A DNA stretch of 64,000 nucleotides from Escherichia coli (GCF_045037415.1 NZ_CP173438.1); one strand, 5' to 3'. Positions 2,656 through 60,376 are shown, counted from the stretch's first letter. Numbers and translations: made by a program. Notes: generated by a model from the letters alone, not told the origin.

Positions 2656-2738
2656 AGAGCTCTCTCTTAGTTTAATTTCCGCCAGGTAATCAGATGACAC
2701 GACTGTGCTTCACGCCATCTATTAACATGTACGTCAGT

Positions 2739-2769
2739 ATATGGGGATGTTTCCCCCACATTCAACGCC
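2739..2769 (-). promoter_or_regulatory. Sigma-32 (heat-shock) promoter of lon
   Basis: Minus strand reads GGCGTTGAA (-35-like CTTGAA) ... CCCCATAT (-10), matching the heat-shock consensus and the lon promoter as I recall it. Confidence 0.65.
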
Positions 2770-2780
2770 GAGAATAGAGG

Positions 2781-2809
2781 AAAAATTAAAGGGGAGATAA
2801 AATCCCCCC
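2781..2809 (-). terminator. Terminator-like hairpin downstream of clpX
   Basis: G/C-rich stem GGGGGGAU..AUCUCCCC on the minus transcript followed by U-rich tract; ~35 nt past the clpX stop. Confidence 0.55.
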
Positions 2810-2842
2810 TTTTCGGTTAACTAATTGTATGGGAATGGTTAA

Positions 2843-27966: not shown

Positions 27967-28452
<486 letters not shown>

Positions 28453-28566
28453 TTACCCTGAACTGACGATACAACAAAGGCGCAACGCTTTTGAGATAAA
28501 GGATCGATGCTTTCACTGCTTTTACCCTCTACCATTAGGCTAATTGCGACGAGAAAGGGACGACCT

Positions 28567-29106
28567 ATGAATACTAACGTTTTTCGACTGCTCCTGCTGG
28601 GAAGCCTGTTCAGCCTTAGCGCCTGTGTGCAGCAAAGTGAAGTGCGACAGATGAAACACAGCGTCAGCACGCTGAACCAGGAGATGACGCAACTCAATAA
28701 AGAAACGGTCAAAATCACTCAGCAAAACAAGCTGAATGCAAAATCCAGCAGTGGGGTTTACCTTCTGCCTGGAGCAAAAACACCAGCAAGACTGGAAAGC
28801 CAGATCGGTACTTTACGTATGTCGCTGGTGAATATTACGCCTGACACAGATGGCACTACCCTGACGCTACGTATTCAGGGCGAATCCAATGACCCTTTAC
28901 CCGCATTCAGCGGAACCGTTGAATATGGGCAAATTCAGGGAACAATAGACAACTTTCAGGAAATCAATGTGCAGAATCAATTGATTAACGCCCCTGCCAG
29001 CGTCCTCGCCCCCAGCGATGTTGATATTCCGTTACAGTTAAAGGGTATTTCTGTGGATCAGTTAGGCTTTGTACGTATCCACGACATTCAACCTGTTATG
29101 CAGTAA
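28567..29106 (+). CDS. yajI: Lipoprotein YajI
   Basis: ORF 28507..29106 trimmed to Met21 (179 aa) MNTNVFRLLLLGSLFSLSAC lipobox signal. Confidence 0.8.
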   Translation: MNTNVFRLLLLGSLFSLSACVQQSEVRQMKHSVSTLNQEMTQLNKETVKITQQNKLNAKSSSGVYLLPGAKTPARLESQIGTLRMSLVNITPDTDGTTLTLRIQGESNDPLPAFSGTVEYGQIQGTIDNFQEINVQNQLINAPASVLAPSDVDIPLQLKGISVDQLGFVRIHDIQPVMQ

Positions 29107-29111
29107 ACGTA

Positions 29112-29150
29112 TTGCGGGGCGATATTGTGCGTCCCGCAACATCTTTCTCC
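29112..29150 (+). terminator. Terminator-like hairpin after yajI
   Basis: UUGCGGGGCG..CGUCCCGCAA stem followed by CAUCUUUCUCC; 6 nt past the yajI stop. Confidence 0.6.
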
Positions 29151-29404
29151 GTCATTTTGTTACTCCGCTTACATCACCTGGATTGATAGTAAAAGTTTGC
29201 AACAAGGGTGAAAGTCAGTACAATCCCCGCCCGAATGTGTGTAAACGTGAACGCAATCGATTACGTAAATGATAGAACTGTGAAACGAAACATATTTTTG
29301 TGAGCAATGATTTTTATAATAGGCTCCTCTGTATACGAAATATTTAGAAACGCAATTTGCGCCTTTTTCACTCCCGCAAGGGATTTTCAAACAGTGGCAT
29401 ACAT
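29151..29404 (+). promoter_or_regulatory. tsx promoter region (known in E. coli to carry two promoters under CRP/CytR/DeoR control)
   Basis: ~250-bp AT-rich region upstream of tsx with TGTGA-containing CRP-like half sites (e.g. CTGTGAAACGAAACATA); site-level assignment not resolved by eye. Confidence 0.5.
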
Positions 29405-30289
29405 ATGAAAAAAACATTACTGGCAGCCGGTGCGGTACTGGCGCTCTCTTCGTCTTTTACTGTCAACGCAGCTGAAAACGACAAACCGCAGTATCTTTCC
29501 GACTGGTGGCACCAGAGCGTTAACGTTGTCGGAAGCTATCACACCCGTTTCGGACCGCAGCTCCGCAACGATACCTACCTTGAGTACGAAGCATTCGCTA
29601 AAAAAGACTGGTTCGACTTCTATGGTTATGCGGATGCGCCGGTATTCTTCGGCGGTAACTCCGATGCAAAAGGTATCTGGAACCACGGTTCTCCGCTGTT
29701 TATGGAAATCGAACCGCGTTTCTCCATTGACAAGCTGACCAATACTGACCTTAGCTTCGGTCCGTTCAAAGAGTGGTACTTCGCGAACAACTACATTTAC
29801 GACATGGGTCGTAATAAAGATGGCCGCCAGAGCACCTGGTACATGGGTCTGGGTACCGACATCGATACTGGTCTGCCGATGAGCCTGTCCATGAACGTCT
29901 ATGCGAAATACCAGTGGCAGAACTACGGCGCAGCGAACGAAAACGAGTGGGACGGTTACCGTTTCAAAGTGAAGTACTTTGTGCCGATTACCGATCTGTG
30001 GGGCGGCCAGCTGAGCTACATCGGCTTCACCAACTTCGACTGGGGTTCCGACCTGGGCGATGACAGCGGTTATGCGAACAACGGTATTAAAACACGTACC
30101 AATAACTCTATTGCGTCCAGCCATATTCTGGCGCTGAATTACGATCACTGGCACTACTCTGTCGTTGCCCGTTACTGGCATAACGGTGGTCAGTGGAATG
30201 ACGATGCAGAACTGAACTTCGGCAACGGCAACTTCAACGTTCGCTCTACCGGCTGGGGTGGTTATCTGGTAGTAGGTTACAACTTCTAA
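29405..30289 (+). CDS. tsx: Nucleoside-specific outer-membrane channel Tsx (phage T6 / colicin K receptor)
   Basis: ORF 29357..30289 trimmed to Met17 (294 aa) [22 protein letters not shown] signal peptide; beta-barrel-like aromatic-rich sequence ending ..GYNF. Confidence 0.9.
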
Positions 30290-34015: not shown

Positions 34016-35158
<1,143 letters not shown>

Positions 35159-41688: not shown

Positions 41689-42039
41689 AAATCATACTGC
41701 CTGTGGATGTGGTGTTGTAACGTTAAATTTTTGTGCCAATCCCTGGGGATGATACAGCGGTATATTTAAACAATTTTAGCGGGAAATACTCCCAACCAGG
41801 CGCGGCGAAGAATAGTTTTTCGATTTACCGCGTAAATGCAGTCAGTATGACAGCACCTGAAGCGCAATTTAAACGCTTATAACGTTTTAAAGCAAGAAGG
41901 GATCTAAAAACCAGAGGTATATAGCGATAAGAAATCACCAACCAGTATAAAACACTATTTCAATGAAAAAGACATGGCTAATCATGCGAACAAAAAATCA
42001 CCAACCATTGTAAAATCTAACGCCCGTATTTCGACTGCA

Positions 42040-42068
42040 AAGAAAATAAGCCAGCATCGGCTGGCTTA
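42040..42068 (-). terminator. Terminator of phoBR
   Basis: AAGCCAGC-CGAU-GCUGGCUU hairpin followed by AUUUUCUUUG, ~30 nt past the phoR stop. Confidence 0.7.
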
Positions 42069-42094
42069 TGGCAATAAAAGATGACAAAGGCGAA

Positions 42095-43390
42095 TTAATC
42101 GCTGTTTTTGGCAATTAAACGTTCCGGGATAATAAAACTGAAACGTGTACCTTTTCCTACTGTACTCTCAATATTCAGGCGACTTTCGTGATGATTCACC
42201 GCATGTTTCACGATCGCTAACCCTAATCCGCTACCACCGGTTTGCCGGGAACGCGCTTTATCAACGCGATAAAAACGCTCGGTCAGGCGCGGAATATGCT
42301 CCGGTGCAATGCCCGGTCCGTTATCTTCAACACTAAATTCGGCACCGTGCGGCACTCGCTGCCAGCGTACGGTGATATGCGTGCCTTCCGGCGTATGATT
42401 CACGGCGTTATAGACCAGGTTCGAAATCGCACTACGTAGCTGATCTTCGTTGCCTGACACCTTGAGGCCGTTATCTATCTCAAAGGTAAATGTCTGTTTT
42501 TTCTGACTCAGAGTCTGAGCCTCGCGCTCAACGACGCGCAGCATCATCGGCACATCAACCTTTTCATTGAGCAAATGCGTCGGTGCGGCTTCTATTTTCG
42601 ACAGCGTCAGCAATTGCTTCACCAACCCTTCCATCCGCTGGGTCTGCTCACGCATGGTGTGCAACGCTTTTTCACGTACCGCGCCTTCCAGCGGTTGCTC
42701 ATCCATCATCTCCAGGTAACCCTGTAACACGGTCAATGGCGTACGTAACTCATGGCTCACGTTGGCAAAAAAGTTACGCCGCGCCCCTTCCAGTTGATGC
42801 ATTTGCGTGACATCTCGCGCCACCATCAGCAACTGTTTGTGGGTATAAGGCATGACGCGAATCTCCAGATGCCGCCCGGTATTGAGCACCAGATTGAGCG
42901 GGCGAGAGAAATCACGCGTTTTCAGATATTGCGTAAACTCCGGGTAACGCAGCAAGTTAAGGATGTTCTGCCCGTTATCTTCCGGCCAGCGCAAGCCAAG
43001 AATCTGTTGCGCCAGACCGTTGCACCAGAAAATACCGCCCTCTTCCGTGGTCAGCACCACCGCGTCGGGCAGCGACTCCGCGCCGCTACGAAAGCGTTTA
43101 ATCAGATTGCCCAGTTCACGGCGGCGTTTTTTATTTCGCAGCTGCATCTGGTGTAAGCCGTATAGTAGCGGTTCCCAGCTACCACGCCCCGGTGGCGGGG
43201 TCATACTACGATCCACCCACAGCCACCATGAAAGGCGCAATAAATTCCAGAAATGCCAGATAAGCAGTCCTGTTACCGATGCCAGCAAAAACCAGGGCAG
43301 GTAACCCAAAAATGCACCCAGGATGAAAGCCGGGAGGCAGCAAAATAGCAGCTCCAGCACCAGCCTTTTCCACGACAGCCGTTCCAGCAC
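42095..43390 (-). CDS. phoR: Phosphate regulon sensor histidine kinase PhoR
   Basis: 431 aa; H-box [14 protein letters not shown]; ATPase G-boxes [30 protein letters not shown]; ORF-track start is a non-ATG codon. Confidence 0.95.
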
Positions 43391-43447
43391 GTAAGATACT
43401 CCAGTTAAGAAATCATAAGCCCTGCTCTACGTCCGATGAGCAAGGCC

Positions 43448-44137
43448 TTAAAAGCGGGTTGAAAAACGATACCCTGTACCGCGCACGGTCTGCACCATGC
43501 GGTCATGCCCGCCGGGCTCCAGTGCTTTACGCAGGCGACGAATGTGGACATCGACCGTACGATCTTCCACATACACGTTGGTTCCCCATACGTGATTTAA
43601 CAGTTGCTCGCGACTGTACACGCGCTCGGGATGCGTCATAAAAAAGTGCAGCAGTTTAAATTCAGTTGGCCCCATCTCCAGCGGTTCTTCGCCCGCCATC
43701 ACCCGGTGAGATGTCGGATCGAGACTTAGCCCCTGCATCTCAATCACCTCTTCCACCGCCATCGGCGATATACGGCGCATTACCGCTTTAATTCGCGCCA
43801 CCAGCTCCTTCGGAGAAAACGGCTTGGTGATATAGTCATCCGCACCGGTTTCAAGGCCGCGCACGCGATCTTCTTCTTCCCCTCTGGCGGTCAACATCAC
43901 CACTGGAATATCCCGGGTCATCGACTCGCGCTTGAGGTGTTTGATGAACTGGATACCGGAGCCGCCAGGTAACATCCAGTCAAGGAGAATTAAATCCGGC
44001 CAGGGTTCATTCAGTTGATTCACAGCACTGTCATAATCTTCCGCTTCGACCGGCTGAAAGCCATTTTGTTCGAGCACGAAGCAGACCATTTCGCGAATTG
44101 GAGCTTCATCTTCTACGACCAGAATACGTCTCGCCAT
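43448..44137 (-). CDS. phoB: Phosphate regulon response regulator PhoB
   Basis: 229 aa [27 protein letters not shown]; receiver Asp in [13 protein letters not shown]; OmpR-type winged helix. Confidence 0.95.
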
Positions 44138-44191
44138 GATTTGCCCTGTTGTAATAAATAGGTTGCGATCATTAATGCGACGTCATTATGC

Positions 44192-44218
44192 GTCAGATTT
44201 ATGACAGATTTATGAAAA
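44192..44218 (-). promoter_or_regulatory. Pho box (PhoB binding site) in the phoB promoter
   Basis: Minus strand reads TTTTCATAAATCTGTCATAAATCTGACG, two CTGTCAT-type repeats with 4-nt spacing as in the Pho box consensus. Confidence 0.8.
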
Positions 44219-44326
44219 GCTCGTCGCACATATCTTCAGGTTATTGATTTCCGTGGCACAGAAAAAAGCAAATGGCACATCTGTTTGGGTATAATCGCGC
44301 CCATGCTTTTTCGCCAGGGAACCGTT

Positions 44327-45529
44327 ATGCGCATCCTTCACACCTCAGACTGGCATCTCGGCCAGAACTTCTACAGTAAAAGCCGCGAAGCTGAACATCA
44401 GGCTTTTCTTGACTGGCTGCTGGAGACAGCACAAGCCCATCTGGTGGATGCGATTATTGTTGCCGGTGATGTTTTCGATACCGGCTCGCCGCCCAGTTAC
44501 GCCCGCACGTTATACAACCGTTTTGTTGTCAATTTACAGCAAACTGGCTGTCATCTGGTGGTACTGGCAGGAAACCATGACTCGGTCGCCACGCTGAATG
44601 AATCGCGCGATATCATGGCGTTCCTCAATACTACCGTGGTCGCCAGCGCCGGACATGCGCCGCAAATATTGCCCCGTCGCGACGGGACGCCAGGCGCAGT
44701 GCTGTGTCCCATACCTTTTTTACGCCCGCGTGACATTATTACCAGCCAGGCGGGGCTTAACGGTATTGAAAAACAGCAGCATTTGCTGGCGGCTATTACT
44801 GATTATTATCAACAACATTATGCCGATGCCTGCAAACTGCGCGGCGATCAGCCTCTGCCCATCATCGCCACTGGACATTTAACGACCGTGGGTGCCAGTA
44901 AAAGTGACGCCGTGCGTGACATTTATATTGGCACGCTGGACGCGTTTCCGGCACAAAACTTTCCACCAGCCGACTACATCGCGCTCGGGCATATTCACCG
45001 CGCGCAGCTTATTGGCGGCATGGAACATGTTCGCTATTGCGGCTCCCCCATTCCACTGAGTTTTGATGAATGCGGTAAGAGTAAATATGTCCATCTGGTG
45101 ACATTTTCAAACGGCAAATTAGAGAGCGTGGAAAACCTGAACGTACCGGTAACGCAACCCATGGCGGTGCTGAAAGGCGATCTGGCGTCGATTACCGCAC
45201 AGCTGGAACAGTGGCGCGATGTATCACAGGAGCCGCCTGTCTGGCTGGATATCGAAATCACTACTGATGAGTATCTGCATGATATTCAGCGCAAAATCCA
45301 GGCATTAACCGAATCATTGCCTGTCGAAGTATTGCTGGTACGCCGGAGTCGTGAACAGCGCGAGCGTGTGTTAGCCAGCCAACAGCGTGAAACCCTCAGC
45401 GAACTCAGCGTCGAAGAGGTGTTCAATCGCCGTCTGGCACTGGAAGAACTGGATGAATCACAGCAGCAACGTCTGCAGCATCTTTTCGCCACGACGTTGC
45501 ATAGCCTCGCCGGAGAACACGAAGCATGA
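44327..45529 (+). CDS. sbcD: Nuclease SbcCD subunit D (Mre11-like phosphoesterase)
   Basis: ORF 44285..45529 trimmed to Met15 (400 aa) [13 protein letters not shown]; phosphoesterase motifs GDVFD, GNHD. Confidence 0.9.
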
Positions 45530-50006: not shown

Positions 50007-50223
50007 TGCCGGATGCGGCGTGAACGCCTTATCCGGCCTACGGGACTGTTCATTTTGTAGGCCTGATAAGACACGCCAGTGTCGCATCAGGCATCGGAGC
50101 ACCGGGGGGTTGCCGCCACTGTGCGCGTTATTTGTTGCCGGATGCGGCGCGAGCGCCTTATCCGGCCTACCGGACGGCTCACTTTGTAGGCCTGATAAGA
50201 CGCGGCAAGCGTCGCATCAGGCA
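50007..50223. repeat. BIME cluster: four REP elements in two tandem REP pairs between araJ and mak
   Basis: TGCCGGATGCGGCG(T/C)GA(A/G)CGCCTTATCCGGCCTAC occurs twice and GTAGGCCTGATAAGAC(A/G)CG..GTCGCATCAGGCA occurs twice in alternating order. Confidence 0.9.
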
Positions 50224-57698: not shown

Positions 57699-58019
57699 TC
57701 AGGCGGCTTTCTTGAGGCAGGCACTCATAAACTTATTACGATCATCCCCTTTCAGAGATTGTTGTGTTGCTTGATTATTACATTCGCGCATCTTTTGCTG
57801 CTGTGGCGTCAAACTTTTTTCACCAGGCGCAGATTTGCTGTTCTTCAGGCAATCACTCATGTAGGTCTTACGAGCATCCCCTTTCAACGCCTGCGCCGTC
57901 GCCTGCTGATTACAAGAGGTCATACGCTGTTGTTGTGGGGTTAAGGTTCTCTCGGCAGCGCCGACGGTGGTTAAAAAAACCAGACCGAAAAGCAAGGTAA
58001 CCAGTAATGTAATTTTCAT
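57699..58019 (-). CDS. psiF: Phosphate starvation-inducible protein PsiF
   Basis: ORF 57699..58037 trimmed to Met7 (106 aa); signal peptide MKITLLVTLLFGLVFLTTVGAA; internal repeat LTPQQQ(R/K)M..CN(Q/N)QAT. Confidence 0.85.
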   Translation of the reverse strand: MKITLLVTLLFGLVFLTTVGAAERTLTPQQQRMTSCNQQATAQALKGDARKTYMSDCLKNSKSAPGEKSLTPQQQKMRECNNQATQQSLKGDDRNKFMSACLKKAA

Positions 58020-58093: not shown

Positions 58094-58130
58094 CAAAAAA
58101 ACCACCCGGCAGCGAAAATTCACTGCCGGG
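58094..58130 (-). terminator. Hairpin plus U-tract between phoA and psiF (partial intra-operon terminator)
   Basis: CCCGGCAG..CUGCCGGG stem followed by UGGUUUUUUUG on the minus transcript, 8 nt past the phoA stop. Confidence 0.7.
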
Positions 58131-58137
58131 CGCGGTT

Positions 58138-59553: not shown

Positions 59554-59615
59554 TTTATTTTCTCCATGTACAAATACATTAAAAAATAAAAACAAAGCGA
59601 CTATAAGTCTCGGCC

Positions 59616-59633
59616 GTGACAACTTTATGACAG
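59616..59633 (-). promoter_or_regulatory. Pho box in the phoA promoter
   Basis: Minus strand reads CTGTCATAAAGTTGTCAC with a TATAGT-like -10 downstream. Confidence 0.85.
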
Positions 59634-59653
59634 CTGTTGAAAAGATTAACTTT

Positions 59654-59914: not shown

Positions 59915-60376
59915 GTCTGTATTTCCTTATCCAAAGTATGGAGAAGTTAACATTATGTTTCACAACTTCATAGTGTCTGGAAGTATTATTTTTATGACAA
60001 AGGAAATACTTTGCGCAAATATTTTTTGTTTGATTACCAGCGAAACGTTTCTCTTATTTAAATAATTACCCACATAAAATATAGGTCTTTAATTATCAAC
60101 CTTTATTATAAATAAAAGTTATGAAATATATTCTCTTCGTTATCTTATAATTAAGAGAAAAAAACTCACCACATGGTCATTTAAGCCAGGAATAAATTAG
60201 CTTCCCGTTCATCATTTTTGTGATCTTGCACACATCTTTGAGATAACGCACTTTCTTCACCAGTACGTTGCTCGCTTTGTCAGCAGAAGATTGCAACATT
60301 CTGTCAGAAGGCCGCGAATCCCCCGTTTTGTCGTGGTAATGTATGCACTTTGTGTTAGACGGGATAGGTTTTTAAG

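Follow-up and report, generated by a model that had tools for sequence, protein, structure and literature searches.

Classical Pho boxes at the phoB and phoA promoters in an 18-kb stretch of the Escherichia coli chromosome

The DNA analysed here (the window, a single strand of 64 kb read 5' to 3') is a piece of the E. coli chromosome, and its orientation is opposite to that of the K-12 map. The genes brnQ, phoR and phoB (minus strand) are followed by sbcD, sbcC and araJ (plus strand); then come mak, rdgC, ppnP, aroM, yaiA, aroL, yaiI, proC and dgcC (adrA), and after these psiF, phoA and iraP (minus strand) and ddlA (plus strand). The five genes with which we are concerned, phoR, phoB, phoA, psiF and iraP, all lie on the minus strand, as they do in the annotation of the matching RefSeq genome, and cover 17,820 bp from the phoR stop codon to the iraP start. 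The identity of their products is secure in that PhoB, PhoR, PhoA, PsiF and IraP each give an end-to-end match to an NCBIfam equivalog model, with a score above the curated cut-off in every case (Table 1).

Several complete E. coli chromosomes match the stretch 41700-44400 at 100% identity, and of 5426 complete E. coli genomes 5424 contain it. Over positions 21700-62965, comparison with strain SK1144 reveals one mismatch in the 41 kb compared, and the sole structural difference is an IS1397 element (IS3 family) that SK1144 carries between araJ and mak and that is absent from the window. The site of this insertion corresponds to about 50022-50024 of the window (the SK1144 element occupies 28326-29757 of the retrieved locus L001), and the junction shows a 3-bp overlap, consistent with target-site duplication. 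Three further observations concern the rest of the window. The region upstream of iraP is very A/T-rich at about 59970-60170, and the interval from iraP to ddlA contains a pseudogene in the RefSeq annotation ('hypothetical protein, internal stop'). Across the whole window, the only Rfam match at the gathering threshold is the sRNA sraA, in the clpX-lon spacer (2727-2822, plus strand; 105.6 bits). A tRNA scan of the whole 64 kb found no tRNA genes.

Table 1. Genes and regulatory features of the phoBR and iraP-phoA-psiF regions, in window coordinates
Feature	Position	Strand	Basis
Terminator-like hairpin and T-run, 10-pair stem, 26 nt past phoR stop	42046..42069	-	consensus scan
phoR, sensor histidine kinase, 431 aa, GTG start at 43390	42095..43390	-	NCBIfam NF008235, 888 bits (cut-off 390); RefSeq
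phoB, response regulator/transcription factor, 229 aa	43448..44137	-	NCBIfam NF007546, 540 bits (cut-off 471); RefSeq WP_000113933.1
Intragenic PhoB-bound site, antisense to phoB, 102-119 nt past ATG	44018..44035	+	PWM; published ChIP-seq
phoB -10 hexamer CATAAT	44185..44190	-	begins 10 bp past box end; assigned from established Pho-promoter geometry
phoB Pho box, including third weak half-site CTGACGC	44190..44218	-	sequence read, consensus, PWM, ChIP-seq
psiF, phosphate-starvation-inducible protein, 106 aa, second gene of phoA-psiF operon	57699..58019	-	NCBIfam NF008560, 234.5 bits (cut-off 165)
Hairpin and U-run between phoA and psiF, 13-pair GC-rich stem	58103..58132	-	folding -29.9 kcal/mol, z = -4.85
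phoA, alkaline phosphatase, 471 aa	58138..59553	-	NCBIfam NF007810, 897 bits (cut-off 540), residues 1-471; RefSeq CDS 1416 nt
phoA -10 hexamer TATAGT	59600..59605	-	begins 10 bp past box end
phoA Pho box, starts 20 bp past iraP stop codon	59616..59633	-	sequence read, consensus, PWM, ChIP-seq
iraP, anti-adaptor stabilising RpoS, 86 aa	59654..59914	-	NCBIfam NF007598, 137.9 bits (cut-off 78)

A sequence-only reading of the window had placed Pho boxes at the phoB promoter (about 44192-44218) and at the phoA promoter (about 59616-59633), and direct inspection of the minus strand finds both where they were said to be. At phoB, the promoter reads GAGC-TTTTCAT-AAAT-CTGTCAT-AAAT-CTGACGC-ATAATGACG, the part from TTTTCAT to CTGACGC running from 44218 to 44190. 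The 18-bp core of this box, TTTTCATAAATCTGTCAT, occupies 44201-44218; the third, weak half-site (CTGACGC), which keeps the 11-bp register, extends the element to 44190 and so accounts for the range originally given. At phoA, the corresponding read is CAG-CTGTCAT-AAAG-TTGTCAC-GGCCGAGACT-TATAGT, the box itself being CTGTCATAAAGTTGTCAC. Both boxes consist of two 7-bp direct repeats close to CTGTCAT, set apart by a 4-bp A/T-rich spacer so as to give a period of 11 bp, and each is two mismatches away from the 18-bp consensus.

The two promoters also agree in their layout. From the end of the box to the -10 hexamer the distance is exactly 10 bp, both at phoB (CATAAT) and at phoA (TATAGT), and the -35 position, taken at a 17-bp spacer, is filled by ATAAAT or ATAAAG, with two of six matches to TTGACA at each promoter. 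A box in place of the -35 element and 10 bp before the -10 is the classical layout of a PhoB-activated promoter. A sigma-70 consensus scan called no promoter at the phoB or the phoA box; we do not regard this silence as counter-evidence, because promoters of this kind have no -35 element.

When both strands of the 64 kb were searched with the consensus CTGTCATAWAWCTGTCAY, allowing up to three mismatches, three matches were recovered, all of them at the phoB and phoA promoters. We also built a position weight matrix (PWM) from 56 published PhoB ChIP-seq 18-mers (PMC10294691, Table 1), with the window's own three sites excluded. On this matrix the first two ranks among about 128,000 window positions go to the phoB box, with 21.3 bits, and the phoA box, with 19.9 bits, and the top three positions in the window are exactly the three ChIP-seq sites tabulated for the matching K-12 region in the same source.

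While the motifs, their statistics and geometry, the gene identities and the conservation come from the present analysis, PhoB binding and PhoB-dependent RNA are taken from published K-12 data. PhoB ChIP-seq in MG1655 places one peak at 417093, assigned to sbcD/phoB (score 11), where the bound 18-mer is that of the window's phoB box, and another at 401676, assigned to phoA (score 20); the latter peak is centred on window position 59624, in the middle of the phoA box (PMC10294691). Table 1 of that study also marks the phoA ChIP region as bound by H-NS. In published RNA-seq, the ratio of wild type to phoB deletion is log2 7.6 for phoA (about 190-fold), log2 6.8 for phoR and log2 5.4 for psiF, and the RNA level of sbcD, transcribed divergently from phoB, does not change (274 vs 271).

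The GTG start that the sequence-only reading gave to phoA (59553-59551), and its strand assignments, are likewise correct: GGAG stands 8 nt upstream of the GTG, the 471-residue product is matched end to end by its protein model, and RefSeq uses the same start. A mechanical ORF call, which would begin phoA at a TTG at 59622 (494 aa), was rejected. This codon lies within the Pho box, upstream of the -10, and therefore cannot be part of a transcript from the phoA promoter. The minus strand shows no terminator-like site from the end of iraP to the start codon of phoA (59554-59653), and iraP transcription or read-through may feed basal phoA expression.

Downstream of phoA, the GC-rich hairpin with its U-run separates the gene from psiF. 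Published K-12 RNA counts are roughly 10-fold lower for psiF than for phoA, dropping from about 310,000 to about 33,000, and the hairpin is probably a partial terminator, with psiF expressed via partial read-through. The hairpin that follows the phoR stop codon is likely to be where the phoBR operon ends.

The 17.8 kb take in two of the roughly nine operons that PhoB activates directly, together with a third phosphate-starvation gene, and the nearness of phoBR to iraP-phoA-psiF (less than 18 kb) might be read as a selected arrangement, for instance a shared phosphate-starvation domain. We consider this unlikely. With nine points scattered randomly over a 4.64-Mb circle, to stand for the directly PhoB-activated operons of PMC10294691, the two nearest would be no more than 15.4 kb apart with a probability of about 0.22. 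Moreover, the 14 kb between the operons holds unrelated genes (sbcDC, araJ, mak, rdgC, aroLM, proC and dgcC), and the IS1397 insertion of SK1144 falls in this very interval. The linkage of the two Pho operons is here treated as coincidence.

Additional Pho boxes had been suggested as worth seeking by PWM scan upstream of psiF, iraP, yaiI and dgcC; the scan returned none above background. Upstream of psiF, which has no box of its own, the best score is 3.2 bits; in the yaiI/proC spacer and upstream of dgcC, again with no Pho box, the best scores are 6.1 and 6.5 bits respectively, and scores such as these are equalled by 81 to 251 window positions. The RNA of yaiI is unchanged in a phoB deletion (published RNA-seq, K-12). 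The scan upstream of brnQ also gave nothing above background.

The case of iraP bears on how many Pho-regulon genes the region holds. In the 462-bp region upstream of the gene (59915-60376), the best PWM score is 8.4 bits, a background value reached by 36 window positions; the consensus search gives no Pho box match upstream of iraP, and the published PhoB ChIP-seq has no peak upstream of iraP or between 401676 and 417093 (PMC10294691). It could still be argued that PhoB acts directly on iraP through a distant or degenerate site, which would make it a genuine fifth gene of the PhoB regulon: iraP RNA is about 2.3-fold lower in a phoB deletion (log2 1.2, q = 3.7e-6; published RNA-seq, K-12), iraP is reported to be up 4.4-fold in an APEC pst mutant, and a lone TGTCATA half-site is present about 80 bp upstream of the iraP ATG. 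Direct activation nevertheless appears very improbable to us. Besides the background score and the lack of a peak, the effect of PhoB on iraP is about 80-fold smaller than its effect on phoA, and a passage of PMC4415409 (citing Bougdour and Gottesman 2007) attributes the induction of iraP by phosphate starvation to ppGpp acting at the iraP promoter, with passages in further review and genome-wide papers likewise crediting ppGpp. The roughly 2.3-fold drop shows some PhoB dependence, which we take to be indirect. We therefore regard iraP as a phosphate-starvation-inducible gene that is not a demonstrated direct PhoB target. Of the earlier statement that five Pho-regulon genes lie within 18 kb, the presence and the distance stand, and the number of direct members comes down to four.

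As to the boxes themselves, the notion that they are a chance A/T-rich pattern in intergenic DNA with no regulatory meaning has next to nothing left to recommend it: weak PWM matches are indeed common (12 window positions reach 12 bits or more against 3.9 expected, and the maximum score in 200 Markov-randomised windows has a mean of 14.9, a 95th percentile of 17.9 and a highest value of 20.6), but the phoB and phoA boxes both exceed that 95th percentile, the three consensus matches stand against 0.19 expected by chance (a count reached in none of 100 shuffles), the two boxes share an identical spacing to the -10 and are conserved across E. coli, and their coincidence with strong ChIP-seq peaks and with PhoB-dependent transcription of 100-fold and more means that published data have already refuted it. 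Two weaker PWM candidates, at 29268-29285 (14.1 bits) and 34544-34561 (13.0 bits), were rejected: their scores fall short of the mean random maximum, and Table 1 of PMC10294691 lists no ChIP-seq peak for either of them.

Although the sequence-only reading was right about both promoter boxes, its count of two missed a third PhoB-bound site, ATTCACAGCACTGTCATA, located inside phoB. This site scores 16.2 bits, third-best in the window yet within the range of random maxima, so it is the published ChIP-seq, and not the score, that vouches for its reality; the sequence is the ChIP-seq site at MG1655 417245, with a ChIP score of 5 (PMC10294691). On the plus strand, the hexamer 10 bp downstream of the site is TCGACC, which is not -10-like. 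Intragenic PhoB sites were concluded to be transcriptionally inert in the ChIP-seq study (PMC10294691), and the site within phoB is probably inert too, in agreement both with that conclusion and with the TCGACC hexamer.

Both promoter regions are nearly universal in the species. The phoB-sbcD spacer occurs in 5424 of 5426 complete E. coli genomes, being at least 99% identical in 4098 of the 5424, and the phoA promoter region was found in 5420 of 5426. Among the phoB-sbcD spacers found, the one that diverges most is that of strain 2018-05-2CC, with 10 differences in 189 positions, a single one of which falls within the 18-bp box; that change, CTGTCAT to CTGTCAC, is compatible with the consensus, and the altered box scores 20.8 bits. 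Some E. coli strains have a variant phoA box, as in M2021-10044802/2-E (locus L005): the second repeat begins with C in place of T (window 59622), which turns TTGTCAC into CTGTCAC and brings the box nearer to consensus, its score rising from 19.9 to 20.9 bits.

Within its core, the phoB box contains a perfect tandem repeat, two copies of the 11-bp unit TCATAAATCTG at 44194-44215 on the minus strand (loci L002 and L009). Three of the 5424 complete genomes (N4220121, 2021CK-00607 and 30348_1#89) lack 11 bp here and have a one-unit allele. The two of these that were aligned, N4220121 and 30348_1#89, differ at a nearby SNP, which places the allele on at least two backgrounds. In the one-unit allele, the working register scores -2.7 bits on the PWM where the two-unit box has 21.3, and the best remaining match, 10.3 bits, is shifted 11 bp toward the -10; on these scores, the allele predicts loss of phoBR autoinduction. 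One might go further and propose that the repeat is a slippage-prone site through which phoBR autoinduction is occasionally and reversibly switched off in nature, as opposed to a place where rare neutral or harmful deletions, or assembly errors, have turned up. We hold this to be a long shot, and the one-unit allele may have its source in an assembly or laboratory artefact. The genome least like the deletion allele was at first suspected of a three-unit expansion of the repeat; it proved to belong to a divergent lineage that differs by point substitutions, and its box has the usual two units.

With the alternatives weighed in this way, we are all but certain that the two boxes mark the classical PhoB-dependent promoters of phoBR and phoA-psiF, that iraP responds via ppGpp, and that the site internal to phoB is probably inert. 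The phosphorylation of PhoB and the recruitment of polymerase are established steps, and the features of the window can be fitted to them as follows. When phosphate is low, PhoR would phosphorylate PhoB, and a PhoB dimer would bind head-to-tail on the pair of 7-bp direct repeats with their 11-bp spacing. The bound dimer would then recruit RNA polymerase, its promoter-proximal protomer contacting sigma-70, with the box replacing the -35 element. On this scheme the phoB box should confer positive autoregulation on phoBR, and the phoA box should switch on alkaline phosphatase, psiF being reached by read-through of the hairpin. The iraP gene, directly upstream of phoA on the same strand, would respond to the starvation via ppGpp and not through a Pho box.

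The Pho boxes of phoB and phoA, and the regulation of phoBR and phoA-psiF, are already known. These promoters are among the best characterised in bacteria, so the discovery value of the region is small and its usefulness is that of a control. In this role it is informative in that a reading made from the sequence without other aids placed the motifs to the base and chose the GTG where a mechanical ORF call chose the upstream TTG. The present analysis sharpens the picture to four genes that are direct PhoB targets and a third PhoB-bound site, inside phoB, with the extra boxes that had been suggested being absent.

Comparison with known systems places the region as follows. The ppGpp-activated iraP promoter answers the same signal as phoA, phosphate starvation, and adjoins that gene; it differs from the phoB and phoA promoters in having neither a Pho box nor a PhoB ChIP peak, and in that its regulator is ppGpp and not PhoB. 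The promoter of pstS carries tandem Pho boxes. The pstS site is the strongest for PhoB in E. coli; it is built from direct repeats in the same way as the boxes described here, and its sequence TGTCATAAAACTGTCATA scores 23.6 bits on the same PWM; pstS is located elsewhere on the chromosome, whereas in the window phoA has a single box and phoB one box plus a weak half-site. At the phoB promoter, every base from the box to the phoB ATG is the same in the window and in a K-12 derivative, and so is the 10-bp spacing from box to -10; nothing functional sets them apart, and the one SNP between them lies 40 bp upstream of the phoB box on the sbcD side. The phoA promoter of K-12 shows no differences from that of the window, the 18-mer CTGTCATAAAGTTGTCAC, the TATAGT -10 and the GTG start being the same in both.
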